NCBI RefSeq assembly: GCF_965641715.1
Contig: NZ_OZ282453.1
Origin: Escherichia coli
GTDB lineage: Bacteria; Pseudomonadota; Gammaproteobacteria; Enterobacterales; Enterobacteriaceae
DNA: 64,000 bases
Strand: one strand, 5' to 3'
Part shown: one piece after another, positions 3,050 through 56,756 of the stretch
How the letters are laid out: each line of letters opens with the position of its first letter
How positions within the stretch are numbered: the first letter of the stretch is position 1
The notes under the pieces: generated by a model
What the model was told of the DNA's origin: nothing
Databases searched by the model: none
Seen by the model: only the letters and a program-made list of their open reading frames with translations
Position numbers and translations under genes: made by a program

Positions 3050-3685
3050 AAAAATGCCCGATGTACAGCTTACATCGGGCATTTGTCTTTTTGCAATAGT
3101 AGATATTCACTCAAAACCTTTCACGGAGTTGATACGCTTCGATACAGAATTCATCGCACTTTTTCCTCTGCTTCCCTATTAATTTCTGACGAAATGAGAC
3201 TAAGTTGTAATGTATTTTTACAAAGCATCAAACTAATAGAACAGTTAATAATAAAAAAGAAATGATATTTTCGTGTCTTAATTTAATATTATTTGTGATG
3301 TGTTAATAGTATAACTTCAAAAAAGTACAATCTCAAACTTAATCTAAGATTGTCTTTTTTGCGCAGGTTATTCATAAATTGAAATTATGTGTAAGATATT
3401 TTTTTAAGCATTTCATTTCTTTTTTATAAGAAAATCCTCAAAATATTTCTATTCTGGCTATACATTAAGCGGTCCTTAATTCGCTGTTAAGTAAATATAA
3501 TTTGAAACAATAAAGACAAAATATCACCATCCGCCCACACCAAAGAATATCTTCTTATGCGACCTATTTTCTTGTTAGTTAGATCGGATAGCTTATTCAA
3601 TGGCTGGGTATAAATAATTGCTATTGACTGAATCAATGTATTGCAATGTTTATATTTTTAATTATTTATGGTTTAAGGACAAATA
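3050..3685. promoter_or_regulatory. AT-rich intergenic region upstream of the fimbrial operon (likely promoter/regulatory region)
   Basis: About 640 bp of strongly AT-rich non-coding DNA between sixA and the first fimbrial gene. No specific site is called. Confidence 0.4.
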
Positions 3686-12984: not shown

Positions 12985-13809
12985 ATGAACAAAACCGCGA
13001 TTGCGCTGCTGGCCCTGCTTGCCAGTAGCGTCAGCCTGGCAGCGACGCCGTGGCAAAAAATAACCCAACCTGTGCCGGGTAGCGCACAATCGATAGGCAG
13101 TTTTTCTAATGGCTGTATCGTCGGCGCTGACACGCTGCCGATACAGTCCGAACATTATCAGGTCATGCGTACCGATCAGCGTCGCTATTTCGGTCACCCG
13201 GACCTGGTGATGTTTATCCAGCGTCTGAGTAGCCAGGTGAGCAATCTGGGCATGGGTACGGTGCTGATTGGCGATATGGGGATGCCCGCTGGTGGGCGTT
13301 TCAACGGCGGTCATGCCAGCCACCAGACCGGACTGGATGTCGATATCTTTCTGCAACTGCCGAAAACTCGCTGGACCTCCGCGCAGCTCTTGCGCCCGCA
13401 AGCGTTAGATTTGGTTTCCCGGGACGGTAAACGCGTTGTCCCCACGCTGTGGAAGCCGGAAATTTTCAGCTTGATCAAACTCGCCGCCCAGGACAAAGAC
13501 GTCACGCGCATTTTTGTTAATCCGGCGATTAAACAACAACTTTGCCTTGATGCGGGCACCGATCGCGACTGGTTGCGCAAAGTGCGACCCTGGTTCCAGC
13601 ATCGTGCGCATATGCATGTACGATTACGTTGCCCTGCCGATAGTCTGGAGTGTGAAGATCAACCTTTACCGCCACCAGGCGATGGTTGCGGGGCAGAACT
13701 GCAAAGCTGGTTTGAACCTCCAAAACCGGGAACAACAAAGCCTGAGAAGAAGACACCGCCTCCGTTGCCGCCTTCCTGCCAGGCGCTACTGGATGAGCAC
13801 GTGATCTAA
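12985..13809 (+). CDS. mepA: Penicillin-insensitive murein endopeptidase MepA
   Basis: 274-aa ORF with signal peptide and His/Asp-rich zinc-peptidase segments; conserved aroC-mepA linkage. Confidence 0.9.
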
Positions 13810-19255: not shown

Positions 19256-21429
<2,174 letters not shown>

Positions 21430-21696: not shown

Positions 21697-22590
21697 CTAT
21701 TTCCAGTTACAAGCAGATTGAAGCGGTTTTAGCGCGTTTGACAGGCCGTTTAAATTGAAAGTTGCACTTACGGGGCTCTCATTATAAGGCGTTATTTTTG
21801 TATACATTTTGCTTGAGTTGGCTAGTTTTCGGATGAAATCAATGTCATTACCTTTATAAAAAACAGCCTTTGTATCTGTAGATACTAGCCAGTTTCGCTC
21901 AACTGCTTTCTGTTTATCAAGGCGATAAAGCATGCTGGTTTGTTCAAGGCCTAAATATACATCCCAACTAAGAAATACTTCGGTTTTCTTTTCTCGGCAA
22001 GCTATAAACAGAGTAGGAGTAACCGCTTCTCCAAATGGAGTTCTGATATAATCATCACTTTCTAACGATAAAATTACATTTTTCGAATCATCAATTGGCG
22101 ATGTAGTAATGGATGTGTGCCATTTTCCTACATCTGTGGCTTTCTCTAATTTTGATTCAGCTTGAACGGCTTTATCCTGTGGGAATAGTTTATCGTAGCA
22201 GTTTAGTCTGGCTTCTTTATCATTTTCTGCACGACATTTAGATATCTCAGAAAGATTTGGTTGCTGAGCCTCTGTTGTTACTGGCTTTTCCGTTTTAGAT
22301 TTTGAGTTTACAGATGGAATAAATGTTGGAGAAAAGAAACGATCATAACAAGATAAACGTCTATCATCATCTTTCTCATCAGGGCATTGATCTCTGCTTT
22401 CGAATTTTTCAGCAACTTTCGTTCGAGTCGGTTGTATTGACTTATCGTAACAAGAAAGTCTGTCTTTATTATTTTCTATTGCTCGGCACTGGAGTACTGC
22501 ATTGAAGTTCTTATGTTCAGTTGCTGCGTGAACAGGCAGTACACTAATTGATAAAAATGATGCGCCTATAGAAAAAATTATATTTTTCAT
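21697..22590 (-). CDS. Prophage cargo: secreted protein with three Cys-containing repeats, function unknown
   Basis: 297 aa, signal peptide (MKNIIFSIGASFLSISVLPVHAA), three repeats of C-x(8-10)-RL(S/N)CYD(K/R), then a ~150-aa C-terminal domain; AT-rich codon usage. Confidence 0.6.
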   Translation of the reverse strand: MKNIIFSIGASFLSISVLPVHAATEHKNFNAVLQCRAIENNKDRLSCYDKSIQPTRTKVAEKFESRDQCPDEKDDDRRLSCYDRFFSPTFIPSVNSKSKTEKPVTTEAQQPNLSEISKCRAENDKEARLNCYDKLFPQDKAVQAESKLEKATDVGKWHTSITTSPIDDSKNVILSLESDDYIRTPFGEAVTPTLFIACREKKTEVFLSWDVYLGLEQTSMLYRLDKQKAVERNWLVSTDTKAVFYKGNDIDFIRKLANSSKMYTKITPYNESPVSATFNLNGLSNALKPLQSACNWK

Positions 22591-22594
22591 TTTA

Positions 22595-22927
22595 TTATCC
22601 CTTTGGTTTAGTAAGAAATACTAAAATTCCGATAATGATATCGCCAATAACCCATAAGCTTCCAATGGTAATTAAACCTAAGCCTGTACCAATAACTGCA
22701 CCGGCTTTTTCAGCATCGGATGTGGCATTATTTATTATTTCACTAGTGCCACCTAGTCCAACTAAAAGCGTATAGATCATAAAAATATTAAATAATATAA
22801 AAACCCACTTAATGATCCGTCCAAAAAATGAACGCTTAAGTTTTTGTAGTTGTTTACCACAAGCAGGGCAATACAATGCTGAATCGCTCACCTCTTTCTG
22901 GCATTCAGGACATTTGATTAATGCCAT
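22595..22927 (-). CDS. Prophage cargo: zinc-ribbon membrane protein, function unknown
   Basis: 110 aa with an N-terminal CPEC-x(13)-CPAC zinc ribbon followed by two hydrophobic helices; 4 bp upstream of the repeat protein (probable operon). Confidence 0.6.
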   Translation of the reverse strand: MALIKCPECQKEVSDSALYCPACGKQLQKLKRSFFGRIIKWVFILFNIFMIYTLLVGLGGTSEIINNATSDAEKAGAVIGTGLGLITIGSLWVIGDIIIGILVFLTKPKG

Positions 22928-23139
22928 GTAATCCGCCTCCTTTGGATTAATACGAGTTGATGTTTGTTACAAAACATTTTGATTTTATCAGATTTTTTTT
23001 TATTGATAAGTGTCAATTGATTAGCTGGTATAGAGTGAGGCATATAGAAGGGCTGATCTGTATCAGTATGTGATGCAAAAATCCCACAGTTTCATGGAAT
23101 TTTTGCAGTTAGAGCTGTGAGATAGGGTGCCTTATCGAC

Positions 23140-23185
23140 CTTACCCTGGCAACCGATTGACGGGGGATTGCTCCCCCGTCGCGGT
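23140..23185 (-). terminator. 3' stem-loop of the hok-like transcript
   Basis: gacgggggagcaatcccccgtc hairpin just downstream of the toxin stop on the minus strand. Confidence 0.4.
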
Positions 23186-23189
23186 TTCC

Positions 23190-23330
23190 TTACTGCTTAC
23201 ACTGTAAGAACGCCGCAAACTCCGCTCCCCAGAAGCTCATCCGTATTTCGCACAGCGAACCGTGAAGCATCCAGATGATGAGGATTGCCGTCACGCAGAA
23301 CGTGATGGCCGTAAGCGATTTTTGCGACAT
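23190..23330 (-). CDS. Hok/Gef-like type I toxin (small membrane peptide)
   Basis: Hand-translated 46-aa ORF MSQKSLTAITFCVTAILIIWMLHGSLCEIRMSFWGAEFAAFLQCKQ: hydrophobic helix, then SLCEIR and EFAAF, resembling Hok-family motifs. Absent from the track because it is under 60 aa. Confidence 0.55.
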   Translation of the reverse strand: MSQKSLTAITFCVTAILIIWMLHGSLCEIRMSFWGAEFAAFLQCKQ

Positions 23331-23520
23331 AGCGCTTGCTCCTTTTTCGGGGAGGCGCTAACCTATCACTTGCTTAGGGTAGACGGTTAGGGCCTCGGTT
23401 AAACAAAAGTGTTTTCCGGGGCCTTTCCACATCTGGCCTTCGGGTATTCCCTCCGACCATCAGCCGAAAGGCACCCGCGCGTAATCTATCGCTTTTTTGT
23501 TACTCCGACAATTCTGCCTG

Positions 23521-23781
23521 TTAATTCTGAGGTAAAGGCAAACTCATCTGATTGTTTCCCCTGTGTGAAGCTGGCAGCTCATGCCACGGGATACCTTCTG
23601 ATGAGTGAACGCCGGAGGCGTGTTTCGATGTGAATTTATGGAAAGCTTCCAGTGTTGAGAAGCATACGCCGCATTCCAGATTGTTACACTGGTAATACTT
23701 TTGCCGCACGGTGTTTGAATCATTTTCCGGACGACTGGTGCGGATACGGGCAGATGCGCCACAAAGCGGACAACGGAACAT
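23521..23781 (-). CDS. ogr: Ogr/Delta-family zinc-finger late-gene activator
   Basis: Starts MFRCPLCGASARIRTSR...YYQCNNLECG, the Cys4 pattern of P2 Ogr; sits beside gene D. Confidence 0.85.
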   Translation of the reverse strand: MFRCPLCGASARIRTSRPENDSNTVRQKYYQCNNLECGVCFSTLEAFHKFTSKHASGVHSSEGIPWHELPASHRGNNQMSLPLPQN

Positions 23782-23823
23782 AGCGACCTCCCTTAACGTG
23801 GTGCTGCCGCTATTCTAAGTTGC

Positions 23824-24933
23824 TCACTCTGTTTCTGCTATCCATTCCGGGATTTTTGCTTCAAGCTCAAGCTGCGTGGTAAAGCCACTGTTATCAATGG
23901 TGTGCTCGGCTTTCGCAATAATCCAGTCCTGATTATCAATCTCGCTTTTAAATCCTGTTACCGTGCCATGCATTTCGGGGTAGAGTTCTGCTCGTCCACG
24001 TGTCAGCGTGATGGAGAATGATGCGGCTCCGCGTTGTAGTTGTTGCCACTTTGCCGCCGCTGCGCGTCTTGCTGCCTGCTCGTTCTGATAAGTCTTGCGT
24101 AACACAAACACATTGCCTTCCGCGCCTTCCATATAATCACCTTCACGGCTGCTGCTTTTCTCTTTTTTCGGTTTTGGCGGTTTGCGGCGTTTCACGCTGA
24201 CTTTTTTCTTTTTCCCGTAATTAAGATCAAGCCAGTAAGCGCGTACCCCCGTATACGCTTCGCGGTCAGCAATGCGGAACTGATGGCGATCGCCACTGCT
24301 GCGTGTGATGGCGAACGATGGCAACGGCTGGCCCTGTGCGTTCACGCCACCGCCGGGCATGATGAATAACAGATTACCGCTTTTTACCGTGGTGATTGCG
24401 CCCAGCATTTCCGCCATGCGCGTAAGGAAGGACATGTCACTTTCTTCGGTCTGGTCGGCGTGGTCGATTTCGATATCCATCAGCATTTCGCTGATTTGCG
24501 GTTTCAGACCGTACCGATGAGCGATGGCGGATACCACACGCTCAACGGTCACATCATGCCAGGACACCTCACGTTTAACGTTAAATTCATCCCGAAAATC
24601 TGCGCTTCTGGCTGAAACAGTCAGCCTGTCCGGCGGTCCTTCGTGTGCGATTTCATCAACAATGTAAGAGCCTTTTTCTGCCAGCGGTTCGCCTTTCCAG
24701 CCAATGAGAACCGTCAGGCGCGCGCCCCGTGGCGGTAGCTGCAACTGACCATCCGCATCATCCAGCGTGATGGTTAGCTGATCTGCCTCAAATCCCCGGT
24801 TGTCGGTCAGCGACAGGCTCATCAGGCGCTCTGCCACTCCGGACAGCGTTTTACCCTCCGCGAGAATATCAAAATCCGGCATTTTTACGGGGTCTGTGCT
24901 CTGACTGAGCAATTGCATGGTGGTATCGGTCAT
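23824..24933 (-). CDS. D: Tail protein gpD (late control gene D family)
   Basis: Conserved segments shared with P2 gpD (SLSLTDNRGFEADQL, RSADFRDEF, basic KKKVSVKRRKPPKPKK stretch, C-terminal GFTTQLELE). Start placed at MTDTTMQLL; the track ORF runs 44 codons further upstream. Confidence 0.8.
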   Translation of the reverse strand: MTDTTMQLLSQSTDPVKMPDFDILAEGKTLSGVAERLMSLSLTDNRGFEADQLTITLDDADGQLQLPPRGARLTVLIGWKGEPLAEKGSYIVDEIAHEGPPDRLTVSARSADFRDEFNVKREVSWHDVTVERVVSAIAHRYGLKPQISEMLMDIEIDHADQTEESDMSFLTRMAEMLGAITTVKSGNLLFIMPGGGVNAQGQPLPSFAITRSSGDRHQFRIADREAYTGVRAYWLDLNYGKKKKVSVKRRKPPKPKKEKSSSREGDYMEGAEGNVFVLRKTYQNEQAARRAAAAKWQQLQRGAASFSITLTRGRAELYPEMHGTVTGFKSEIDNQDWIIAKAEHTIDNSGFTTQLELEAKIPEWIAETE

Positions 24934-25090
24934 CTGCTTCCTCCCTGTGCGGCATGGTCGCATGTGCGTGTGGAGGGGGTTACTGCTTTTTGTTGTCGCC
25001 GTGGCGGGAGAACGGCGCAGGGGTGAGATTACGCGCGTGGTGGGTGATGATTGTTGCCGAATCATTTAACGGATACAAGGGGCTGAAGCT

Positions 25091-26275
25091 ATGAGTGAAA
25101 CTCGTTTTCATGGTGCCCGTGTTACGGAAAATACCGATCTGGTAACAGCGATTAACGATGTTGATTCCAGCGTTATCGGTATCGTGGCAACGGCGGATGA
25201 TGCGGACGCGAATCTGTTCCCGCTGAACAAGCCCACACTGCTGACCCGCGTCAATGACGTGCTGGGAAAATGCGGGACAACGGGGACGCTTTATCGTGCG
25301 CTTAAGGCCATCGCAGACCAGGTGAGCACAAAGGTGATCGTCGTTCGCGTGGCTGAACACAAAGAAGAAGACGGAAAGACGCAGGATCAACTGGTTATCG
25401 GTGGTTCTGAGGATGACGGCAGCTATACGGGGATGTATGCGCTGCTTGTTGCAGAGCAGGATGAAAGCATCGGATACCGTCCGCGTATTCTGGCCGCGCC
25501 GGAGCTGGACACGGAGGCGGTAACGAAATCCCTGTGCGTGATTGCAGGTAAACTGCGCGCGTTTGTGTATGCCTCATGTCACGGCTGTAACACGATGGCT
25601 GAGGCGATTACCTACCGCCAGAAATTCAACGAACGTGAGGTGATGCTCTTATGGCCGGACTTCATCGCCTACAACCCGAAAAGTGGCAAAAACGAAACGT
25701 TCCCCGCACCTGCCTATGCGTGCGGCCTTCGTGCGTACATTGACCATGAGCAGGGGTGGCACAAATCACTGTCCAACGTTCCGGTTAAAAATGTGCTGGG
25801 GATGTCGAAGCATGTGTTCTGGTCGTTGCAGGCCGAAGACAGCGATGCCAACAGCCTCAACAACAAAGAAATCACGACCATTATTCGTCGCAACGGGTTC
25901 CGCTTCTGGGGCAACCGCACACCGGAAACGAACGCCTACATCTTTGAGGTGTATACCCGAACCGCACAGGTGCTGGCTGATTCAATTGCGGAAGCGCAGT
26001 TTGAAACCATCGACAGTCCACTGACGCCTGCGAACGTGAAGGATGTTATCAGTGCCATCAGGGCAAAACTGGATTCACTGGTTACTGCCGGGAAACTGAT
26101 TGGCGCGGAGTGCTGGTATGACGTGGTGGATAACAGCACCACGGATTTACGTCAGGGGCGCGTGCGTATTCGCTACAAATATACGCCCGTTCCGCCACTG
26201 GAAGACATGGAGCTTTACCAGACGTTTACTGATGAATACTTTGAACCCGCATTTGCGGTGCTGGGAGGTGCCTGA
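25091..26275 (+). CDS. FI: Contractile tail sheath protein gpFI
   Basis: 394 aa; extended similarity to P2 FI (FPLNKP, KLRAF, WPDF, DHEQGWHKSLSNV, RRNGFRFWGNRT, YTRTAQV, YTPVPPLE). Confidence 0.9.
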   Translation: MSETRFHGARVTENTDLVTAINDVDSSVIGIVATADDADANLFPLNKPTLLTRVNDVLGKCGTTGTLYRALKAIADQVSTKVIVVRVAEHKEEDGKTQDQLVIGGSEDDGSYTGMYALLVAEQDESIGYRPRILAAPELDTEAVTKSLCVIAGKLRAFVYASCHGCNTMAEAITYRQKFNEREVMLLWPDFIAYNPKSGKNETFPAPAYACGLRAYIDHEQGWHKSLSNVPVKNVLGMSKHVFWSLQAEDSDANSLNNKEITTIIRRNGFRFWGNRTPETNAYIFEVYTRTAQVLADSIAEAQFETIDSPLTPANVKDVISAIRAKLDSLVTAGKLIGAECWYDVVDNSTTDLRQGRVRIRYKYTPVPPLEDMELYQTFTDEYFEPAFAVLGGA

Positions 26276-26787
26276 TGGCTGTGCCAAAACATCTTCGCTT
26301 TTTTACGCTGTTTGTGGATGGTGAAAACGAAGTGGGTAAGGTGACGTCCGTCACTCTGCCTAAGCTGACGCGCAAAACCGACAGCTACCGGGGTGGCGGC
26401 ATGATGGGTGCGGTAAGTATTGATCTCGGTCTGGACGACTCCGCGCTTGATGCGAGCTTTGTCATGGGGGGCGCAGTTCGTGAGCTGTTCCTTAAGTATG
26501 GCGGCACGATTGACGGCACGCTGCTGCGTTTTGCGGGTGAATACTACACCGATGCAGAAAGCGACCTGTATGAAGTCGAAATGCGCGGACGTGTGACGGA
26601 AATTGATATGGGGGAAGCCAAACAGGGCGAAGCCACATCACACACTTACGCCATTAAAAACACCTACTACAAGCTGAGTGTTAACGATCGCCCGTTGTGG
26701 GAGATTGACCTGCTGAACTTCATCTACCGGAAGGACGGCAAGGACATTGTGCCTGACCGTATCCGTTCCGCGCTTGGGCTTGGCTGA
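26275..26787 (+). CDS. FII: Tail tube protein gpFII
   Basis: 170 aa, immediately after the sheath gene (ATGATGGCT overlap); size and position as P2 FII. Confidence 0.85.
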   Translation: MAVPKHLRFFTLFVDGENEVGKVTSVTLPKLTRKTDSYRGGGMMGAVSIDLGLDDSALDASFVMGGAVRELFLKYGGTIDGTLLRFAGEYYTDAESDLYEVEMRGRVTEIDMGEAKQGEATSHTYAIKNTYYKLSVNDRPLWEIDLLNFIYRKDGKDIVPDRIRSALGLG

Positions 26788-26841
26788 TAAGTAATATGCA
26801 GGCGGCGCAGTGCGTCGCCTCTGACTGAAAGGAGTTTCCTG

Positions 26842-27207
26842 ATGAAAGAGACGAAAAACATCGATACCGAAAACACGGTAGTTACTGACACTGTGAAAGA
26901 AACCAGTGAGCGTGGCGTAAAACTTACCCAACCAATTGAGCGAGGCGGCGAAAAAATCACGTATGTGGAGATCACCGGGGCTATTGAGCAGGCTGGATCT
27001 CTGCGAGATTTGTCGCTGTCTGATGTGCTGAATCTGAAAGCGGAATCCATGTTTACGCTGCTGTCACGCGTGACATCACCGCGACTGGATGAAGTGACGA
27101 TCAAAAAAATGGCATCCCGTGACTTTATTCAGTTATGTGTGGTTGCCGTAAATTTTTTGAGCGGTGCGGACTCTGGCGGGAAGAACGAACAGGCGACGGA
27201 AGCCTGA
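26842..27207 (+). CDS. E: Tail assembly chaperone gpE
   Basis: 121-aa acidic ORF between tube and tape-measure genes; carries a slippery site near its 3' end. Confidence 0.75.
   Translation: MKETKNIDTENTVVTDTVKETSERGVKLTQPIERGGEKITYVEITGAIEQAGSLRDLSLSDVLNLKAESMFTLLSRVTSPRLDEVTIKKMASRDFIQLCVVAVNFLSGADSGGKNEQATEA
27153..27159 (+). other. Programmed -1 frameshift site for the E+E' fusion chaperone
   Basis: Heptamer T TTT TTG in the gpE frame; the -1 frame stays open to 27371 (E' extension), the same device P2 uses. Confidence 0.7.
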
Positions 27208-27321
27208 TCACGGTTGTGTGCTTTGAGCACATAGAAGACTTTGTGGCGGATATTGCCGCCATTTTTAACTGGTCGCCCGCCGAAATCTTCATGATGACTC
27301 CCGGCGAAGTGGTTAGCTGGC

Positions 27322-30165
27322 GTGAGCGGGCGGCACTTCGCAGCGGGAATACAGACAATGAAGACTCTTGATATCCGGGTCGCTTTCAGCGCCGTTGACA
27401 GGCTGACCCGGCCTGCCGAAAACGCCCGCCGCCTGATGGGGCAGTTTGGTGACTCCATCCAGCGAACGCAGGGGGCGATCAAAAATCTCGAGCGTCAGGC
27501 GCGTTCATTTGAGCGCGCCCGTGACGCTGTCAGTAAAGCGGATGCTGGCATATTGAAAGCACGACGCCAGCTTAACGCTCTTAATCAGTTACAACGCACG
27601 GGTACAGTGCTCAGCGAAAAACAACAAAAGCTGATGCAGCAGTTAAGCACCCGGCTTGAACGCCTGAATGAATCGCGCACACGGGAAATTCAGAAAATGC
27701 GGGAACTTGGCGGAGAGCTGAAACGCCACGGCATTTCCCTGACAGGCAGCGATAACACCATCCAGCAGGCCATCAGACGCACCGAACAGTACAACAACCA
27801 GCTTGAACGCGAACGGCAGGCGCTTGCGCGTGTAACGCGGGCGCGTGAGCGGTATTCGCGCGCGCAGGAAACCGCGGGAAAACTGAAAACAGGTGGTGCG
27901 CTGGCAATTGGTGCGGCAGCGGCGGGCGGCTATGCTGCCGGGCGTTTTTTGCAGCCCGCGATCGGGTTCGGCAAAGAGATGTCCCGCGTTCAGGCGCTGA
28001 CGCGAATCGACCAGAACAGCCCGCAGTTTAAGGCGCTGCGTGAGCAGGCGTTAAAACTTGGCTCTGAAACGCAGTTCACCGCAGGCGATGCCGCCAGTGG
28101 GCAGGCATTTCTTGCAATGGCTGGCTTCACACCGCAGGCCATTCAGGCTGCGCTCCCCGGAGTGCTGAGCATGGCAACGGCTGGCGGTATGGATCTCGGC
28201 GAGACGGCAGATATTGGCTCAAATATCCTGACGCAGTTCGGCCTTTCTGCTGACCAGATGGACCGGGTCGGTGACACGCTCACCGCAGCGTTTACCCGTA
28301 CCAACACTGACCTTCGCGCACTGGGCGAAACCATGAAATATGCAGGTCCGGTGGCGGGCAAGCTGGGAATATCGCTGGAGCAGGCCGCAGCGATGGCGGG
28401 CGTGCTGGCGAATATGGGTATCAGGGGAAGTGATGCCGGGACGGCAATGCGTGCCAGCCTGGCTCGTCTTGCATCACCGCCAAAGGCGGCAGCAGAGGCG
28501 CTGAAAGAGCTTGGTGTGGCAGTCTCTGACGCGAACGGCAAAATGCGCCCGATGGAGGATGTGCTGGCCGACCTTTATAAAGCCACCCGCAAATACGGGG
28601 AAGTTGACCGGGTATCGTTCTTTAAGGACATTGCCGGAGAAGAGGCTTTCACATCGTTTATGGCGCTCGTTGATGCAGCGGGTGACGGTTCCTTACCTAA
28701 ACTGAGAAAAGAACTTGAAGGCGCGCGCGGTGAGGCTGAACGCACAGCAAAGGTTATGGCCAACAACCTTGACGGCGATCTGAAATCACTCGGCAGTGCA
28801 TGGGAAGGGTTGCGCATCCGCATTGCAGATCTGATTGACGGCCCGCTGCGTTCTGTCACGCAGTGGCTCACGCGGGTGGTATCAAGGGTGACGGCGCTGG
28901 CGCAGGCCCATCCGGCACTGACGCGCCAGCTACTGATAGCAGGCGGTGCGTTGCTGGCAATGACTGCAACGATTGGCTCGTTGTCGCTGGTTATTGGCGT
29001 GCTTCACGGGAAACTGGCCACGTTACGTCTTGGTTTTTCTCTCCTGACCGGATCAATGAATGTCGTCAGGGTGCTGCCAGCACTATGGGGAATGGTAACA
29101 GGTTCCATCTCGTTGCTGGGTGGCGCTATCGGGGCGCTGTTCAGTCCGGTCGGATTGATTGTTGCCGCGTTTGTGGCTGCGGCGGTTCTCATCTGGAAAT
29201 ACTGGGAACCCATCAAGGCGTTTTATGCCGGGGTGTTCAGTGGAATTATGGAACGGCTGGCTCCGTTGCGCGAAACCTTTGAACGGTTTGGTCCTGTTTT
29301 TGATGTCGTGCGCGATGGGATTATTCAGCTCTTTAACTGGTTTAAATCGCTGCTGTCACCGATGGAGTCCAGCAAGGAAACGCTGGATAAATGTACCAGT
29401 GCTGGCGAGATATTCGGTAACGTTCTTGGTGGCGCGCTACAGCTTGTTCTGACGCCTGCAAAAATGCTGCTGGATACGCTGGCGTGGATACTTGAAAAAC
29501 TCGGTGTGCTTCCGGATGAAGCGGAAAGGGCGAGAAAGAAAATCGAAGACGCACAGCGTGCGGCCATTCTTCAGGACAAGGTTGCCTTGCTTCAGGGGGA
29601 CCTGGCGAAAATCAATCCGCCGAAGCCTGTGGAAAATGGCAATGGCACCGGAGGTGATAACCCCAAAGACAATAAACCGCTCACAGACAGCAATACCGGG
29701 ACGCTACGCAGACTCAGCAAAATTGCTGATAACACAGGTAAGCTGGTTGATGAGACGAAAAAACGCATTGGCCCCGGCGATATTGTCTTTAAGAACCTGC
29801 CCCGCGCACTTGCTGTTCGTGGGGAGTGGCAGGAGCGGAAGATTGCGCAGGTCAGTAAGCCTGCCCCCGCAATTAATATCACCCCCGTGGTCCCGGCTCC
29901 GCTGCCTCCGGCGCTGGTCCCTGTTGTTGCGGCCAGCTCCCGCCCGGTGGCGGAGGCCATACGATCTCCAGTGGCATCAGTTCCTGTAACTTCCCGTAAC
30001 CGGGAGCCTGTTGCCTCCGGATTTGGTGGTGAAATTCATGTTCATCTGCATAACGTTGTTACGCAGAATCCCCGCGAACTGGCGAAACTGGTCGGTGAAA
30101 TGGTCAGGGCAGAAATGGAACGGCGCGCCCGTGCCGGGCGTGGCAGTTTTTACGATAAAGATTGA
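27322..30165 (+). CDS. T: Tail tape-measure protein gpT
   Basis: 947 aa, Ala/Gly-rich with coiled-coil N-terminus and central hydrophobic segments; follows E/E'. Confidence 0.88.
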   Translation: MSGRHFAAGIQTMKTLDIRVAFSAVDRLTRPAENARRLMGQFGDSIQRTQGAIKNLERQARSFERARDAVSKADAGILKARRQLNALNQLQRTGTVLSEKQQKLMQQLSTRLERLNESRTREIQKMRELGGELKRHGISLTGSDNTIQQAIRRTEQYNNQLERERQALARVTRARERYSRAQETAGKLKTGGALAIGAAAAGGYAAGRFLQPAIGFGKEMSRVQALTRIDQNSPQFKALREQALKLGSETQFTAGDAASGQAFLAMAGFTPQAIQAALPGVLSMATAGGMDLGETADIGSNILTQFGLSADQMDRVGDTLTAAFTRTNTDLRALGETMKYAGPVAGKLGISLEQAAAMAGVLANMGIRGSDAGTAMRASLARLASPPKAAAEALKELGVAVSDANGKMRPMEDVLADLYKATRKYGEVDRVSFFKDIAGEEAFTSFMALVDAAGDGSLPKLRKELEGARGEAERTAKVMANNLDGDLKSLGSAWEGLRIRIADLIDGPLRSVTQWLTRVVSRVTALAQAHPALTRQLLIAGGALLAMTATIGSLSLVIGVLHGKLATLRLGFSLLTGSMNVVRVLPALWGMVTGSISLLGGAIGALFSPVGLIVAAFVAAAVLIWKYWEPIKAFYAGVFSGIMERLAPLRETFERFGPVFDVVRDGIIQLFNWFKSLLSPMESSKETLDKCTSAGEIFGNVLGGALQLVLTPAKMLLDTLAWILEKLGVLPDEAERARKKIEDAQRAAILQDKVALLQGDLAKINPPKPVENGNGTGGDNPKDNKPLTDSNTGTLRRLSKIADNTGKLVDETKKRIGPGDIVFKNLPRALAVRGEWQERKIAQVSKPAPAINITPVVPAPLPPALVPVVAASSRPVAEAIRSPVASVPVTSRNREPVASGFGGEIHVHLHNVVTQNPRELAKLVGEMVRAEMERRARAGRGSFYDKD

Positions 30166-30171
30166 GGAGTC

Positions 30172-30666
30172 ATGGCCATGATGATGATCTACGGCATGTT
30201 TGTTTTTGAGCTGCGCACGTTGCCGCATCAGCAGTTACAGCAAAACAAAAGCTGGCGGCATGTGAAAAATGAACGCGTTAACCGTTCAGCAAGCTGGCAG
30301 TATATCGGGGCAGGCGATGATCGCATCGTTCTTTCTGGTGTGCTTTATCCTGAAATTACAGGTGGCGAAGTGTCGCTTTCGTTGCTGACCACGCAGGCAT
30401 ATACAGGACGCCCCTGGCCTCTGATTGATGGTGTCGGGCAGATTTACGGCATGTATGTCCTGACCGGAACGAATACGACCCGTTCCGAGTTTGATCGCTA
30501 CGGTAAGGCGAAAAAGATAGAATTTTCACTGACCCTTGAACGCTGTGATGAGGATTTGCGGGAGCGCCTGCAATCCTCATCGTTCAGCGATATGCTGTCC
30601 GGCTTCAAAGATAAGGTGACATCATCTCTTAACAGCGCGGCCAGTTCAGTTAAAGGGCTGTTCTGA
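30172..30666 (+). CDS. U: Tail protein gpU
   Basis: 164-aa ORF directly after the tape-measure gene, the position and size of P2 gpU. Confidence 0.75.
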   Translation: MAMMMIYGMFVFELRTLPHQQLQQNKSWRHVKNERVNRSASWQYIGAGDDRIVLSGVLYPEITGGEVSLSLLTTQAYTGRPWPLIDGVGQIYGMYVLTGTNTTRSEFDRYGKAKKIEFSLTLERCDEDLRERLQSSSFSDMLSGFKDKVTSSLNSAASSVKGLF

Positions 30667-30675
30667 TTTAACACA

Positions 30676-30709
30676 AAAACCGCTAATGGTCAGATTAGCG
30701 GTTATTTTG
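30676..30709. terminator. Bidirectional intrinsic terminator between gpU and the invertase gene
   Basis: aaaaaccgctaatggtcagattagcggttattttgtttt: a 9-bp perfect stem (accgctaat/attagcggt) flanked by A-run and T-run, between convergent genes. Confidence 0.7.
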
Positions 30710-31307
30710 TTTTCTGACTCTTCTCTATTGCTCCGCTTGATTCTCCTGCGGGGTGGTAACGATAAATCGTCGATGTACCAATGCCGTAAATTATTGCCAG
30801 TTGTTTTCTGTCGTGACCGTTTTTAATCAGCCTTGCTATTTGCTCATGCTGTTCTTTTGTCAGCTTCGGGCGACGTCCGCCTGTGCGCCCCCGTGCGCGC
30901 GCTGCTGCCAGTCCGGCCAGTGTACGTTCAACAATTAATTCACGTTCCATTTCAGCCAGGGCACCCATCACGTGGAAGAAAAAACGCCCCATTGGAGAAG
31001 ATGTATCTATGCTGTCGGTCAGACTGCGAAAATTAATCCCTCGCTCCCGTAGTTCCCCGACGAGAGAAATCAGATGTTTCATGCTTCGCCCGAGGCGATC
31101 CAGTTTCCAGACAACCAGCGTGTCACCTTTTTGAAGACGCTTTAAAGCGCGTTTTAATCCCGGTCGGTCTGTCTTTGTCCCGCTTAATTTATCTTCAAAT
31201 ATTTGTTCACATCCTGCACAAACAAGAGCGTTTCGTTGCAGGTCTGTATTCTGGTCATTTGTTGATACCCTTACATAGCCAATCAGCACGCTGAATCTCC
31301 CGTCCAA
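30702..31307 (-). CDS. Serine DNA invertase (Hin/Gin/Cin/Pin family)
   Basis: IGYVRVSTNDQNTDLQRNAL...GDTLVVWKLDRLGRSMKHL...MGRFFFHVMGALAEMERELIVERT, near-identical in pattern to Hin/Gin including the catalytic Ser; C-terminal HTH. True start may lie a few codons inside the ORF. Confidence 0.9.
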   Translation of the reverse strand: MDGRFSVLIGYVRVSTNDQNTDLQRNALVCAGCEQIFEDKLSGTKTDRPGLKRALKRLQKGDTLVVWKLDRLGRSMKHLISLVGELRERGINFRSLTDSIDTSSPMGRFFFHVMGALAEMERELIVERTLAGLAAARARGRTGGRRPKLTKEQHEQIARLIKNGHDRKQLAIIYGIGTSTIYRYHPAGESSGAIEKSQKTK

Positions 31308-31342
31308 AAGCGTAAATCATGCCATGCAGGTCAGAAACGGCC

Positions 31343-31368
31343 ATTATCTAAAACCTCGGTTTACAGGA
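31343..31368. repeat. Invertase crossover site, left (gix/hix-like 26-mer)
   Basis: ttatctaaaacctcggtttacaggaa, an imperfect palindrome of the Hin/Gin site type; inverted copy at 34409..34434. Confidence 0.8.
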
Positions 31369-32374
31369 AACGGTAAACAGGGCTGGTAACGCCGTGCAAA
31401 AAAATGGCGATACTTTGTCCGGTGGGCTTACTTTTGAAAATGACTCAATCCTTGCCTGGATTCGAAATACTGACTGGGCGAAGATTGGATTTAAAAATGA
31501 TGCCGATGGTGACACTGATTCATACATGTGGTTTGAGACAGGCGACAACGGCAATGAATATTTCAAATGGAGAAGCAAACAAAGCACCACAACAAAAGAC
31601 CTGATGAATCTTAAATGGGATGCTTTGTATGTTCTTGTTAAAGCTCTTTTCAGCAGTGAAGTAAAAATATCGACAGTCAATGCACTGAGGATATTTAATT
31701 CATCTTTTGGTGCCATTTTTCGCCGTTCTGAAGAATGCCTGCATATCATCCCTACACGAGAGAATGAGGGGGAAAATGGTAATATAGGGCCACTACGTCC
31801 CTTTACGCTTAATCTCAGAACTGGCCGCATAACTATGGGGCATGGTCTGGATGTTACAGGAGATATAACAACTAACGCCTGGGTGTATGCAAACAGGTTT
31901 GCTATTAATAGTGGCTCAACCTCATGGATTGATATGCGAAACCAGAATGTCATTTTTGGTAGAAACGCAGTATCAACAAGTTCTGCGCAGGCTTTGTTAA
32001 GACAAGACCATGCAGAACGCAAATTTTTTGTCGGTGGACTTGGTAACTACCAGTTTGGTTTTTACATGATTAATAACTCAAGGACAGCCAATGGCACCGA
32101 TGGTCAGGCGTACATGGACAATAACGGTAACTGGCTTTGTGGCTCGCAAGTTATTCCTGGCAACTATGGCAATTTTGATTCCAGATATGTGAGAGATGTT
32201 CGCCTGGGTACGCGAGTTGTTCAATTGATGGCGCGTGGTGGTCGTTATGAAAAAGCCGGACACGCAATTACCGGATTAAGAATCATTGGTGAAGTAGATG
32301 GCGATGATGAAGCCATCTTCAGGCCAATACAAAAATACATCAATGGCACATGGTATAACGTCGCACAGGTGTAA
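31369..32374 (+). CDS. Alternative tail-fibre C-terminal cassette (silent in this orientation)
   Basis: Frame open from the crossover site; encodes ETVNRAGNAVQKNGD..., parallel to the H segment after its own site, and ends ...INGTWYNVAQV like the expressed fibre. No promoter or N-terminus of its own. Confidence 0.75.
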
Positions 32375-32905
32375 ATGATGCAGCATTTAAAAAATATTAA
32401 GTCTGGAAATCCTAAAACGAAAGAACAATATCAGCTAACAAAGAATTTTGATGTTATCTGGTTATGGTCCGAAGACGATAAAAACTGGTATGAGGAAGTG
32501 AAAAACTTTCAGCCAGACACAATAAAGATTGTTTACGATGCAAATAATATTATTGTCGCCATCACTAAAGATGCCTCCACGCTTAACCCTGAAGGTTTTA
32601 GCGTCGTTGAGGTTCCTGATATTACAGCCAACCGCCGCGCTGATGATTCAGGAAAGTGGATGTTTAAGGATGGAGCTGTAGTTAAACGGATTTATACGGC
32701 AGACGAACAGCAACAACAAGGCGAATCACAAAAGGCCGCATTGCTTTCCGAAGCTGAATCAGTCATCCAGCCGCTGGAACGCGCTGTCAGGCTGAATATG
32801 GCAACAGACGAGGAACGCACACGACTGGAAGCATGGGAACGCTACAGTGTTCTGGTCAGCCGTGTGGATACGGCAAATCCTGAATGGCCACAAAAGCCTG
32901 AATAA
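32375..32905 (+). CDS. Tail-fibre assembly chaperone (partner of the silent cassette)
   Basis: 176 aa, [26 protein letters not shown]...; clear paralog of the oppositely oriented 177-aa ORF. Confidence 0.8.
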
Positions 32906-32933: not shown

Positions 32934-33467
32934 TCATTCAGGTTGTTCGGGAAATGTTACTGGCAGGCTGGAGGTGTCTGTAGATTCGACTTTCTGCGCA
33001 TAGAGCATCCACTCGGTTAATTTTTGTTTATTCTCGTCGGAAATGATGCCCAGCCGTAGCTGTGAGTCCCATAGCTGGGTTTTATCCCTAACGAGCTGTA
33101 GCAGGCTTTGCTTTTCATTTTCCGCCTGCTGCCTCTGCTCTTCCTCGGTATAAGTTCGCTTTACCACTACGCCATCTTTGAACATCCATTTACCAGAAAT
33201 ATCAGCCCGGCGATTTGCTGTAATATCAGGAACCTCAACGACGCTTGCGCCTTCTGGATTAATTGCTGAAACATCCTTTTCAATACAAATAATAACGTTG
33301 TTGTGGTCATAGACCATTTTCAACGTATCAGGCTGAAAGTTCTTTTGTTCCTCATACCAGTTTTTCCCATCCTCTGTATAAAGCCATTTGATGTTAAATT
33401 GTTTCGTTAGCTGGTATTGCTCTTTTGTTTTAGGGTTGCCAGCAGTAATATTTTTTAAGTGCATCAT
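32934..33467 (-). CDS. Tail-fibre assembly chaperone (partner of the expressed fibre)
   Basis: 177 aa, [25 protein letters not shown]...; directly downstream of H on the same strand. Confidence 0.8.
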
Positions 33468-33469
33468 AA

Positions 33470-35698
33470 TTAAATACTCCCCGCGTTATACCACGTCCCA
33501 TTAATGCAATACTGAATTGGCCTTGCCTGAGTTGTATCAATTAATTCATCACGGTTTCCGTTAACTGAACCCGTAACGACATAACCTGACCTGTCAGACC
33601 AGCCGGGACCATTCCATGTCTGAACAGATGACAGACCGCCAAGGCGAATACCTGTAATAAACCTTGAGTTACATTCTGCCTGCGTGTATGCACCAACATC
33701 TCCCGCAGAGGGTTTGCGGGTCGTGGTGTAAAACTCTGACCAGTTAGCCTCAAATCCATAACCATCACGCGCTGAACGATAAAAAATACCGCCGTTCCTG
33801 TAATTCACGCGGAACTGTACAGCAGGGCAGCTCCCCGTATTCATATTGAAGTGGAGGATTAATGTCGATGCACCGCTGATATCTGCATCATAAACACCGC
33901 TATTCCAGTTCCAGCCAACAGCTTTATCATTTGCAACCCTGCTTCCTGTTTGCCCTAAAGCAAATGCAGGCTGCTGGTTTTTCGTGTTGTAGTCTCTTCG
34001 CCAGCCAGGAGCATAAGCATCACCATGATTAATATAAGTGAATTGAGCGTTAGAGGTGCCGCCTCCGGTGGAAGTGCTTGGTGTTGTTACACGGATGGTC
34101 ATGGCACCTTTATTACCCATAACCTCAATAACGCAACCTGCAAGATGAATAGTTCCACAGCCAGTATCGGTAATAATTTTATTATTGCCGTATGACCATG
34201 AACATTTGCACATCCAGTATGGGTGATTGAATGCCCCTTGAGAATCCAGCCATTCAATCAATTGTGCCGTTGTCCAGTTCCCTGCCCCTGTACTAATAGC
34301 ACTGTGAAAAGCGCGACATGCACCAATATTTTTTGTGAAGGTATCTTTTCCTGGAATATCTGCGCCGTTCTGGTTTTTCTGTAATGCGCCAGAAGCCTGA
34401 TTTACCGTTTCTTGTAAACCGAGGTATTCGATAACGGCAGCAACGGTCGATTTCGCAAGAATATCCCGCCCGACTTTTGTCAGGGTTGCCAGGCTGGCGA
34501 CATCATTCCCCGTAAAATACGGAAACCTGTCTGCCGCAGTAGCAAGCCCGGCCAGCGCCGTCAGGGTGGCATCTTTCGGTTGCTTACCCGCAAGCGCGTT
34601 AGTCATGGTGGTCGCAAAATTCGGGTCGTTTCCCAGCGCCGCCGCTAACTCGTTCAGCGTATTCAGTGCGTCAGGTGACGAATCTACAAGGGCGGCAATC
34701 GCAGCCATAACGAAAGCCGTGCTTGCGATTTGGGTATTATTCGTTCCCTGTCGCGCAGTTGGCGTTGTTGGCGTTCCGGTCAGCGCAGGACTGTTTAAGG
34801 GCGCTTTCTTGTTCGTTTCATCCATTACCGCCTTAACCGCTTTCGATGTCGCGGCCAGTGTTTCAGACGTGCTGTTGGTGGCACTACTGAGCTGGACTAT
34901 CCCTTTTTGTGCCGTCGTGGCGTCCTGAGCGGTATATTTTGCGTTAGCAAGGTCATACGCGGCCTTTACTGCTTTCGGCGTTGCAGCCTGCGTTTCAGAC
35001 GTGCTGTTGGTGGCGCTACTGAGCTGAACTATCCCTTTTCGCGCAGTGGTAGCGTCCTGTGCGGTGTATTTGCCATTAGCCAGGTCATATGCCGCCTTAA
35101 CAGCCTTTGGCGTTGCCGCAAGCGTTTCAGACGTGCTGTTAGTGGCGCTGCTAAGTTGAACAAAGCCTTTTGCGGTCAGCGAGGCGTCCGGGTGACGTCG
35201 TGAGTGTTCATGCTCTTTCAGTTTGTCATCCACGTAATCCACTGTGGCCATTACCATGGTGTTATCCACGGTAAGCGCCACGGTGGCAGTGCTGGATACG
35301 GTCAGAATGGTGCGAAATGTTTGTGCACGTCCTGACCCTTCGGCAACGGTTGGCTTGTAACTTTCGGCAGTATTGCCTACTGCGATTAAATCGCCGTGCT
35401 CATCAAACACACCAATTTCCCGGATCCAGAATCCGCCCGTTTCTGGAGGAATAACCAGCTCCGCAATAATGCGGTTCTGATGTGTTGCGTCCAGGATGAC
35501 GCGATTAACAGTGTGTCGCCACACCTCATGCACCAGACGGGTCTGCTTACTGTCTGGTGTGGGCAACGTGCCGCCACCGTCGCCCACGGCCATATGAGTC
35601 AGGCGGACAGGCTTACCATCTGGCGCGGCTGCCTGAGCTAATTTTTTTGCACCCGTATCGGTGATAACGGTTTTAAATTTTCGTGTTGTGGTACTCAT
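33470..35698 (-). CDS. H: Tail fibre protein gpH (constant N-terminus plus currently selected variable C-terminus)
   Basis: 742 aa; conserved phage-fibre N-terminus, three tandem 43-aa repeats, crossover site near codon 421, C-terminus ...[12 protein letters not shown]. Confidence 0.85.
34409..34434. repeat. Invertase crossover site, right (gix/hix-like 26-mer, inside gene H)
   Basis: ttcttgtaaaccgaggtattcgataa, the inverted partner of the left site. Confidence 0.8.
34906..35290. repeat. Three tandem ~129-bp repeats inside the tail-fibre gene
   Basis: The DNA repeats encode [43 protein letters not shown] three times with minor variation. Confidence 0.7.
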
Positions 35699-43665: not shown

Positions 43666-43819
43666 AGTTTTTGCCCCTCTGACTGGTTCTTCAGTCATGA
43701 TGGCAAAGCGTAACAGGCTGATACAAAGGGCTTTTGTTGTAAGAAAATGGCCAGAACAGGGGGTTAAGGAGAACGGTTTCGCGCGCGGGTAATCTTCCTG
43801 TAATTACTCAGGGGGAGCA
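43666..43819. promoter_or_regulatory. Divergent late-promoter region between gpO and gpP
   Basis: 154-bp gap between the divergently transcribed head genes. No promoter motif was confirmed. Confidence 0.4.
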
Positions 43820-47141: not shown

Positions 47142-47498
47142 ATGGAAATGAATATGAAAACTGTAACTGATGATGAATTTCGTGAGAACCTGAGTGAAAT
47201 TCTGGATTACCTTTCTTCCGGTGGCAGTGTCGTTATCACGGCGCAGGGAGGGAAGGATGTTGTTCTTGCTGGTTCTGATCTTAGTCCTGAAATACGGGCT
47301 GTCCTTGGCAAAACCAAAAAACTGCGGGATCAAATAAACAAAATGAAGCAACCACTCTTAATAAATGCAGTGAGAGATCTGGAAAAACGTCATCCAGCTC
47401 TTGTCGCACAGAGAAAAAAAGGATTGTCTTTTGAAGATGCAATGAAGCGTACAAGAGAAAAACATGCGGATATCATTAAAAAGCTTGAGGATAACTGA
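47142..47498 (+). CDS. Phd/YefM-family antitoxin
   Basis: N-terminal T..EFRENLSEILDYL...VVIT..GKDVVL resembles the Phd/YefM fold; stop overlaps the toxin start (ATAACTGATGG). Confidence 0.7.
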   Translation: MEMNMKTVTDDEFRENLSEILDYLSSGGSVVITAQGGKDVVLAGSDLSPEIRAVLGKTKKLRDQINKMKQPLLINAVRDLEKRHPALVAQRKKGLSFEDAMKRTREKHADIIKKLEDN

Positions 47499-47905
47499 TG
47501 GACATAGTGTTTTTGTCAAAAGAACAAGTAGAACGTATCCATGCTGAAACTTTACCCCAGAGCGGAAATGCCAATGACGGGCTACTTGAAGGTGCTTTAA
47601 ATCGCGTCAGGACACTACACTACTATGAAGGGGTTGATGATATTCATGCTCTGGCTGCTATGTATTTGATTGGTATAGCCAAGGCTCATGCCTTTCATGA
47701 TGGGAATAAACGCACAGCTTTTCAGGCTGCATCAATATTTTTAATGATGAACTCTTCCGAACTTTCAAACTCCCTGCTGCTGGTTAAATTAACGGTGTTT
47801 TCAGCAATGGGGATAGCTACCCTTGAGGAAGTTACCTTTGCTTTGAAATTGCTGTCTGATTATGGCAATGAATTAATCAGCGACTACGAAGAAGATTATA
47901 TTTAA
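47498..47905 (+). CDS. Doc-family toxin (Fic fold)
   Basis: HAFHDGNKRTAF matches the Doc/Fic core motif HxFx(D/N)GNKR; 135 aa. Confidence 0.8.
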   Translation: MDIVFLSKEQVERIHAETLPQSGNANDGLLEGALNRVRTLHYYEGVDDIHALAAMYLIGIAKAHAFHDGNKRTAFQAASIFLMMNSSELSNSLLLVKLTVFSAMGIATLEEVTFALKLLSDYGNELISDYEEDYI

Positions 47906-56660: not shown

Positions 56661-56756
56661 GGCCAGAAAACTGGTTAGACCTGCTTTTTGTCTGGTCTGA
56701 TTATTGCTGGAAAGAGGCTGGAGAAATTGTAGAGCGGTTCATTGGAGGGCTTCGTA

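Follow-up and report, generated by a model that had tools for sequence, protein, structure and literature searches.

Inverted orientation of the FI-to-U tail genes in a P88-like Escherichia coli prophage: a probable single, ancient inversion

The 64,000-nucleotide stretch of Escherichia coli DNA analysed here (the window) carries a P2-like prophage, inserted between flk and pdxB, whose tail genes depart from the canonical P2 order. In that order, FI-FII-E-T-U-D-ogr form one operon; in the window, FI to U lie on the strand opposite to D and ogr. The question raised by this locus is whether the FI-U block was turned around in this genome or is ordinarily so arranged. An earlier note on this DNA, made from the sequence alone, offered two explanations: an inversion, possibly mediated by the adjacent invertase, or a distinct late-operon layout of the phage lineage. 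The second held up, and an invertase-mediated or genome-specific inversion did not. We consider it highly probable (approximately 0.88) that FI-FII-E/E'-T-U was inverted with respect to P2 through one ancient, now fixed inversion, and that it is neither an active invertase switch nor specific to this genome.

The gene identities and strands given in the earlier note, D and ogr minus, FI-U plus and H to O minus, were confirmed using the list of open reading frames and PHROG assignments (Table 1); P is on the plus strand. The Peduoviridae tail module is complete, comprising FI, FII, E/E', T, U, D and an Ogr-type activator, with tblastn identities of 32–48% to P2/186. Specifically, the D product is 48% identical to P2 gpD and the ogr-like product is 36% identical to P2 Ogr; PGAP labels ogr of the near-identical prophage in E. 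coli RM10740 as "ogr/Delta-like zinc finger". In the annotated genomes of P2 and 186, tblastn revealed that O...H, FI...U, D and ogr are all co-directional. Compared with P2, the inversion thus comprises FI-U and nothing else, as had been claimed.

The window otherwise resembles the F (J) late operon of P2/186, FI-FII-E-E'-T-U-D followed by ogr (B). The same seven proteins are encoded (33–48% identity), E/E' involves the same −1 frameshift, ogr has the same place after D, and the FI start lies equally far from the activator site. In P2/186, however, all of these genes are co-directional and U and D overlap at their stop and start codons, whereas in the window FI-U is inverted, U has its own terminator, and D opens a separate unit with ogr instead of closing the F operon. 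D starts at the ATG at 24933, preceded by a GGAGG Shine-Dalgarno sequence, and the D/FI intergenic region, rightly described as divergent, is therefore 157 bp and not 158 bp. At the other end of the block, the reported bidirectional terminator adjoining the invertase gene was found to consist of a 10-bp stem (AACCGCTAAT/ATTAGCGGTT) accompanied on each strand by a T run. Reading of the frames located the E/E' slippery sequence, TTTTTTG, at 27154–27160 together with a −1-frame E' ORF; the annotations of P88 and RM10740 place GpE at the equivalent of 27216–27371. The longest ORF for T starts at the GTG at 27322.

Table 1. Features of the FI-U region and its surroundings in the window
Feature	Coordinates	Strand	Basis or remark
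Zinc-finger late activator gene of ogr/Delta type, 86 aa	23521..23781	-	PHROG 603 transcriptional regulator; follows D, as in P2
D, baseplate hub, Phage_GPD family, 369 aa	23824..24933	-	PHROG 52, E=2e-165
Divergent D/FI control region, 157 bp	24934..25090		Conserved blocks on both sides of central dyad
-10-like hexamer GACCAT, putative late promoter P_D	24954..24959	-	46 nt from dyad centre; predicted start ~24947
Candidate Ogr-binding dyad TGT-CGCCGTGGCGGG-AGA	24994..25011		Consensus TGT-N12-ACA; centre ~25002.5
-10-like hexamer ATGATT, putative late promoter P_F	25047..25052	+	46.5 nt from dyad centre; predicted start ~25059
FI, tail sheath	25091..26275	+	PHROG 23, E=3e-127; 47% identity to P2/186 FI
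FII, tail tube	26275..26787	+	PHROG 55; 44–46% identity to P2/186 FII
E + E' extension	E 26842..27207, E' up to 27371	+	PHROG 103; E' via -1 frameshift
T, tape measure protein	27358..30165	+	PHROG 28; annotated start in relatives, ATG 27358
U, tail protein, last gene of inverted block	30172..30666	+	PHROG 76, E=8e-75; 44–46% identity to P2/186 U
Bidirectional intrinsic terminator	30678..30703		Between convergent U and invertase genes
Gin/Hin-type serine DNA invertase	30702..31307	-	PHROG 125, E=9e-97; 92–96% nucleotide identity to Mu/D108 gin
Invertible tail-fibre segment	31344..34434		gix-like sites 31344–31369 and 34409–34434; inverted repeat

Positions 23400–31400 of the window aligned with P88 as a single colinear piece (100% coverage, 97.0% identity), and this 8-kb region aligned in one piece with P88, phiSM, P884B11 and others at 95–97% identity. 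From ogr to P, the late proteins share 94–100% identity with their P88 counterparts, and the strands in the P88 annotation are the same as those of the window genes. By this alignment of the 8-kb region and these late proteins, the prophage is classed as P88-like (Xuanwuvirus). P88 and other Xuanwuvirus phages (Citrobacter phiSM, P884B11, 520873, 500465-2, PhiR44_2 and Chuche) share the order ogr (minus), D (minus), FI to U (plus), invertase (minus) and invertible tail-fibre segment. They differ from the window in allelic ways only, namely a 3-aa indel in D and the content and orientation of the tail-fibre cassette.

The orientation of FI-U was evaluated across 5426 complete E. coli genomes, with presence of a junction defined as at least 80% coverage of the query. 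The native D/FI junction was present in 1115 of these genomes, or about one fifth. A chimeric D|U junction constructed in the P2 order was present in none of the 5426 at this coverage; matches to it occurred in 1414 genomes, in every one as separate halves only. The opposite orientation of FI-U was thus absent from all 1414 matching genomes, which are consensus assemblies and may hide rare flipping within a culture. In IMG/VR, FI-U was divergent from D-ogr in all 65 classifiable loci, and the 15 truncated loci were all consistent with this layout (n = 80); in approximately 22 of these loci, identity was only 73–80% for D and 48–58% for T.

The layout is the norm in a prophage lineage that is recognised and very common. 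The earlier note had named routine occurrence of this orientation in relatives as the finding that would speak against an unusual event, and FI-U is indeed so oriented in P88, phiSM, P884B11, SEN5, Kp4848-1, 80 of 80 IMG/VR loci, and Serratia and Hafnia prophages. The finding is ordinary, and the layout can be seen in annotated genomes already deposited. In the literature searched on P88, phiSM, SEN4/5, Xuanwuvirus and Peduoviridae, no explicit account of the inversion was found, "inverted" referring to IS elements or to tail-fibre switching; the searchable papers on P88, phiSM and SEN4/5 discuss neither the inversion nor the promoter.

Beyond Xuanwuvirus, the same inverted FI-U block and a dyad-bearing divergent spacer of approximately 136–193 bp occur in SEN4/SEN5 (Senquatrovirus; D of SEN5, 63%), Kp4848-1 (Reipivirus; D, 71%), and Serratia and Hafnia prophages. 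These phages are far more divergent from the window (D 63–78%, T 27–58%), and in most of them neither the invertase nor the invertible fibre segment is present. At the level of D similarity, named homologues with 72–80% identity come from Salmonella, Citrobacter and Pectobacterium as well. The P2-type co-directional order was found in P2, 186, RE2010 and 500465-1, and U and D are adjacent in Ralstonia, Zymomonas and Burkholderia phages. Based on these data, the P2 order is ancestral.

In neighbour-joining trees of D, FI and U (15 taxa, unrooted or midpoint-rooted), inverted phages were in each case split from P2-type phages and formed one clade, which accords with a single ancient inversion. 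The tree of baseplate protein J did not recover this split, which is consistent with mosaicism; the argument for a single event thus draws on the tail-module genes themselves. Judged by these sequence comparisons, Peduoviridae contain an inverted clade, defined by the inversion and made up of Xuanwuvirus/P88, Senquatrovirus/SEN4-5, Reipivirus, and the Serratia and Hafnia prophages. The divergent D/FI junction is a clean synapomorphy for placing P2-like prophages in this P88/SEN4/Reipivirus clade.

The separation of D from FI-U raises the question of how D is transcribed. Ogr/Delta/B-dependent late promoters were taken to have a TGT-N12-ACA dyad centred approximately 55 nt upstream of the start and no −35 element, and to depend for transcription on the zinc-finger activator contacting the alpha subunit of RNA polymerase. 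An exact search of the late spacers for TGT-N12-ACA returned no match because the right half is AGA at both sites in the window. The AGA-type dyad was recovered by comparing the D/FI spacer with the O/P spacer, and then with relatives. The extended motif TTGTTGT-N12-AGAAC occurs exactly only in the D/FI spacer and in the O/P spacer (43734–43757), and the O/P spacer has the same geometry as the D/FI spacer. A search for a third Ogr-type site upstream of R/V yielded only a two-mismatch match within a lysis gene.

Among the D/FI spacers of 14 lineages, the aligned dyad was TGT-N12-ACA in 6 and TGT-N12-AGA in 8, a count that includes one lineage (L068) in its aligned register. In these lineages, the central dyad is conserved together with a −10-like element 46 nt away on each side and, further out at a constant distance, a Shine-Dalgarno sequence with its ATG. 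Relatives have AAACCAT, GAATTAT or AAATCAT at the distance of the P_D hexamer, and the P_F hexamer is conserved as GATTAT, AATGAT or AATCAT. The FI ATG is 81–89 nt from the dyad centre here and approximately 83 nt in P2.

This geometry is like that of P2 pP/pO (186 p12/pV), in which one central Ogr/B site lies amid two divergent late units, approximately 55 nt from each start; the P2 annotation gives a single pP/pO site at 3057–3087 and starts at 3016 and 3127. The inversion would have placed the Ogr-binding site of the F promoter, which has dyad symmetry, approximately 70 bp from D on its upstream side. Two divergent late promoters would then share a single central activator site of the TGT-N12-ACA type, centred at about −55/−56 in both directions, with P_F driving FI-U as far as the bidirectional terminator and P_D driving D-ogr. 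Expression of the late tail genes would accordingly be divided between two Ogr-dependent units, where P2 has one. From conservation and geometry, we infer the existence of P_D, the positions of the predicted starts and the use of a single conserved dyad to drive FI-U and D-ogr alike, as in P2 pP/pO. The earlier contention that transcription of D has to be separate from that of FI-U is sound, and the conserved activator site and promoter-like elements facing D strengthen it.

More broadly, we lean slightly towards the view that the inversion made a second bidirectional late pair, P_D/P_F, such that the whole late regulon would be run from two two-way activator sites (O/P and D/FI) and D-ogr would be a short self-activated unit. 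Such a second pair appears to be present in the P88 clade, whereas P2 pF is unidirectional. If this is true, an operon was split by inversion while co-regulation was kept, owing to the palindromic activator site. The conserved single-dyad divergent spacer would provide a simple, testable example of an inversion that splits an operon and leaves both halves under the same activator.

Alternatively, the layout could be fixed with D transcribed from an unrelated constitutive or early promoter, the dyad serving P_F alone. We regard this as unlikely, if still worth weighing. The D-side −10-like hexamer, GACCAT, is weak, and the predicted D leader would be very short, approximately 14 nt. In addition, a simple sigma-70 consensus scan of the D/FI spacer detected no promoter, leaving the field open; since late promoters are activator-dependent, this result was expected and is uninformative. 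Against an unrelated promoter, the D-side block (CGCGCGCGTG, an A/T-richer hexamer, Shine-Dalgarno sequence and ATG) is held at constant distance from the dyad even in lineages whose spacers have otherwise diverged, and it resembles the P side of the O/P spacer in the window. Moreover, D is an essential late tail protein, required simultaneously with FI-U, and P2 provides a precedent for one dyad serving two divergent promoters.

A very improbable alternative is that the adjacent Gin-type invertase flipped FI-U through degenerate secondary sites, actively or recently in this genome. An intact invertase gene does adjoin the U end of the block, and serine invertases occasionally use pseudo-sites. 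However, the window contains just two gix-like sites, with no third or fourth within 3 mismatches, and these bound the tail-fibre segment. The secondary crossover sites suggested for the FI-U junctions were sought using a Hamming scan, in which the best 26-mers had 12 of 26 mismatches, equivalent to background. Similarly, an inverted-repeat search found no repeat linking both junctions beyond chance; a 19-nt pair at 24585/30438, inside D and U, is consistent with chance. The substrate of the invertase is instead the tail-fibre segment, which contains alternative tail-fibre C-termini and assembly genes. This segment served as a positive control for the orientation test: it was found in both orientations in complete E. 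coli genomes (35 versus 80), against 0 of 1414 matching genomes with a flipped FI-U junction. Experimentally, switching in P88-like prophages has been observed in the tail-fibre (GpH) region only, with PCR confirmation in one such prophage (bioRxiv 10.1101/2022.05.07.487787).

The presence of the inversion is also uncoupled from that of the invertase. Specifically, SEN5 and the Serratia and Hafnia prophages have inverted FI-U and no invertase, whereas in 500465-1 an invertase gene lies immediately upstream of FI and the P2 order is kept. The invertase of the window and its two gix sites match the Mu G segment/Gin system (also P1 Cin, Salmonella Hin and e14 Pin). FI-U stands outside that system: it lacks crossover sites at its boundaries, occurs in one orientation in nature, and does not co-occur consistently with an invertase.

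An assembly artefact at both junctions, always a general possibility, has a negligible probability since the same junctions recur in 1115 complete E. coli genomes, at least 7 independently sequenced phage isolates and 80 IMG/VR contigs, and the junctions contain no repeats able to mislead an assembler; the misassembly envisaged in the earlier note is thereby excluded. For annotators, the layout is not to be flagged as a rearrangement or a misassembly. The best match to the junction, at 99.9%, was in E. coli RM10740, whose prophage carries an inserted IS66 element within the fibre region and lacks the invertase.

The tail block FI-U (FI, FII, E/E', T and U) of this P2-like prophage is inverted relative to P2, as the earlier note had described, and this orientation is normal and fixed in the gene order of a phage lineage that is common and has already been classified. 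The ORF map and PHROG searches bore out the note's gene calls. In the P2 and 186 annotations, O...G, FI...U, D and ogr/B all run in one direction. Using tblastn of the window proteins onto these phages (identities: D, 48%; FI, 47%; FII, 44-46%; T, 32-33%; U, 44-46%; ogr, 36-38%), the flipped segment was exactly FI-U, and the rest was not flipped. The prophage occupies approximately 36 kb between host flk and pdxB. As in P2, the late gene closest to one attachment end is ogr, and thus the minimal difference from P2 is an inversion of FI-U rather than of the remainder of the genome. The D/FI spacer is divergent as claimed, but measures 157 bp (24934-25090), not 158, based on the D start at ATG 24933 with GGAGG ahead. 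The note's bidirectional terminator corresponds to a hairpin at 30678-30703, where U and the invertase gene converge, with a 10-bp stem and T runs on both strands.

Features of the prophage and its borders. Genes from ogr to the invertase, except E', were assigned using the ORF map and PHROG.
Feature	Coordinates	Strand	Remarks
flk (host)	20434-21429		prophage border
VasI/TagO-like "type VI secretion-associated" protein	21697-22590		cargo block; below NCBIfam cut-off
110-aa zinc-ribbon protein	22595-22927		cargo block
Hok/Gef toxin gene	~23190-23330		cargo block; position from RM10740 annotation
ogr-like zinc-finger gene	23521-23781	-	
D	23824-24933	-	
FI (sheath)	25091-26275	+	
FII (tube)	26275-26787	+	
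E	26842-27207	+	
E' ORF	end 27371	+	-1 frame relative to E; slippery TTTTTTG at 27154-27160
T (tape measure)	27358-30165	+	
U	30172-30666	+	
Gin/Hin-type invertase	30702-31307	-	
Alternative fibre C-terminus	31394-32374	+	inside gix-bounded segment
Assembly gene of alternative fibre	32375-32905	+	inside gix-bounded segment
tfa, currently expressed	32934-33467	-	opposite alternative fibre genes, with C-terminal part of H
H, I, J, W, V ... N, O (beyond invertase and tail-fibre cassettes)		-	
P, Q		+	follow O
Tyrosine integrase	56742-57761		next to pdxB
pdxB (host)	57920-59077		prophage border

The layout is not peculiar to this genome. Window 23400-31400 aligned to Escherichia phage P88 (Xuanwuvirus, Peduoviridae) as one colinear piece at 97.0% identity, and to Citrobacter phiSM, P884B11, 520873, 500465-2, PhiR44_2 and Chuche at 94.6-97.4%; strands in the P88 RefSeq annotation are those of the window. 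The native D/FI junction (24234-25790) was at least 80% covered in one place in 1115 of 5426 complete E. coli genomes. A chimera of P2 order, made from the D start region and the reverse-complemented U end, reached 80% coverage in none of the 5426; all 1414 matching genomes carried separate halves only. Pieces up to approximately 1.2 kb apart were joined in this search, so intervening DNA could not have masked a flipped arrangement. Misassembly at the junctions was also considered and rejected. Separately, close relatives of this prophage show different kinds of decay: E. coli RM10740 (NZ_CP043821, 26505-31436) has IS66/ISCro1 in the tail-fibre region, lacks the invertase and has a split D annotation, and O157:H7 strains carry IS30 within the D/FI junction query region.

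Relatives routinely carry FI-U so oriented, in agreement with the note's alternative of a lineage with a distinct late-operon layout. Searching IMG/VR with aligned D proteins yielded 80 loci. FI-U was divergent from D-ogr in all 65 with D, FI and U, and FI was divergent from D in all 15 truncated loci; approximately 22 of the 80 are distant (D, 73-80%; T, 48-58%; ogr, 42-52% identity). Salmonella SEN5 (Senquatrovirus; D 63%, FI 55%) reads V-W-J-I-H-G (+), U-T-E-FII-FI (-), D (+), without an invertase, and this gene layout recurs in Klebsiella Kp4848-1 (Reipivirus, D 71%). In Serratia liquefaciens and Hafnia alvei (D 72%), the prophages read tail fibre (+), U...FI (-), D-ogr (+) and likewise lack an invertase. 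In contrast, RE2010 (Felsduovirus) and Escherichia phage 500465-1 (Wadgaonvirus), each with D at 53%, retain the P2 order. In the SEN5 GenBank record, a 39-aa "late control protein ogr" is placed on the minus strand (13253-13372). The homologue located by tblastn with the window Ogr lies downstream of D on the plus strand, and the annotation is probably a strand or ORF mis-call.

The P2 order is ancestral, as U adjoins D in Ralstonia RSA1, a Zymomonas prophage and Burkholderia KS5, and the two are co-directional where strands were seen (KS5). In neighbour-joining trees of D, FI and U, the inverted-layout phages formed one clade against the P2-type phages each time. The split was not recovered in the baseplate J tree, a result compatible with the usual mosaicism of P2-like phages. 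A single old inversion passed on to the entire clade would be most parsimonious. Judging from its sampled members, this clade would account for 48 of the 525 D-bearing records of the phage collection (D identity of at least 60%).

The note's other suggestion, an invertase-mediated inversion through a secondary site, was rejected on the lack of crossover sites, the absence of flipped genomes and a double dissociation. Specifically, SEN5 and the Serratia and Hafnia prophages are inverted without an invertase, while 500465-1 has an invertase and invertible fibre segment directly upstream of FI and keeps the P2 order. The window contains only two sites resembling gix, the crossover site of Gin-type invertases (31344-31369 and 34409-34434); these form an inverted repeat bracketing a tail-fibre segment. 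Within 100 bp of either FI-U junction, the best 26-mer had 12/26 mismatches to these sites, a background level reached at 0.47% of window positions and thus expected about once per junction zone. The two zones shared no exact inverted match of at least 10 nt, and 39 of 200 shuffles did as well as or better than their best 16-mer match, which has 3 mismatches. As a positive control, the chimera test on the tail-fibre segment found the window junction in 35 and the flipped junction in 80 complete E. coli genomes. The method therefore detects true invertase substrates, and FI-U is not one. Segment 31344-34434 resembles the Mu G segment, and reversible inversion, confirmed by PCR, has been reported for the GpH tail-fibre region of a P88-like prophage (preprint 10.1101/2022.05.07.487787).

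We next consider the D/FI spacer, aligned across 14 lineages. At its centre, a dyad comes after a conserved T-rich run and reads TGT-N12-ACA in 6 and TGT-N12-AGA in 8 of the 14 (L068, one of these spacers, counted in the aligned register); the window dyad (24994-25011) is of the latter group. The TGT-N12-ACA-type dyad is the consensus recognised by the late zinc-finger activators Ogr, Delta and B; the P2 and 186 annotations include such binding sites. On the FI side, conserved GCGTGA precedes a -10-like element (GATTAT, AATGAT or AATCAT in relatives; ATGATT at 25047-25052 in the window, 46.5 nt from the dyad centre), and the FI ATG lies at +81 to +89 (approximately +83 in P2). On the other strand, conserved CGCGCGCGTG precedes a -10-like element (AAACCAT, GAATTAT, AAATCAT; in the window GACCAT, the complement of 24954-24959, 46 nt from the centre), then a Shine-Dalgarno sequence and the D ATG at approximately +62 to +72. 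The extended motif TTGTTGT-N12-AGAAC (24990-25013) has its only other copy in the O/P spacer (43734-43757), where the geometry matches: CGCGCGCGGGTAATCT on the P side, with a hexamer 46 nt from the centre. Similarly, one annotated P2 activator site (3057-3087) serves pP (start 3016) and pO (start 3127), approximately 55 nt each way.

Based on the spacer conservation, the O/P geometry and the single P2 site, we propose that D-ogr and FI-U are driven by a shared Ogr-type site. Through the inversion, pF and its palindromic activator site would have come to lie in front of D. Both P_F (FI-U, ending at the 30678-30703 terminator) and P_D (D-ogr) would be driven from this single site, with predicted starts at ~25059 (+) and ~24947 (-), respectively. 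This putative bidirectional promoter is the only mildly new element, testable and incremental. The whole prophage contained two Ogr-type dyads only, one per divergent late spacer. A counterpart of the P2 pV site was not found ahead of the R/S/V genes, and O through the fibre genes may thus form one long operon. Some deposited annotations call ORFs, small or long, across the D/FI spacer as 43-50 aa "hypothetical proteins" (window 24980-25390, minus strand; P88 gp50; SEN5_27). These overlap the conserved promoter region and FI start, have no PGAP call in RM10740, and are probably spurious.

The FI-U layout is plain in public annotated genomes despite the silence of the literature searched: the papers on P88 (PMC5285337), phiSM (PMC6456863) and SEN4/5 (PMC5261728) do not mention inversion, rearrangement or gene order, and searches on Xuanwuvirus and on Peduoviridae with inversion returned nothing relevant besides the tail-fibre switching preprint cited above.

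The prophage end by flk (21697-23330) is a low-GC (~0.42) cargo block. A toxin of the Doc (death-on-curing) family (47498-47905, above the NCBIfam cut-off) is encoded between the portal and the replication/partition genes; the 118-aa ORF directly upstream (47142-47498), which matched no family, may encode its cognate antitoxin.
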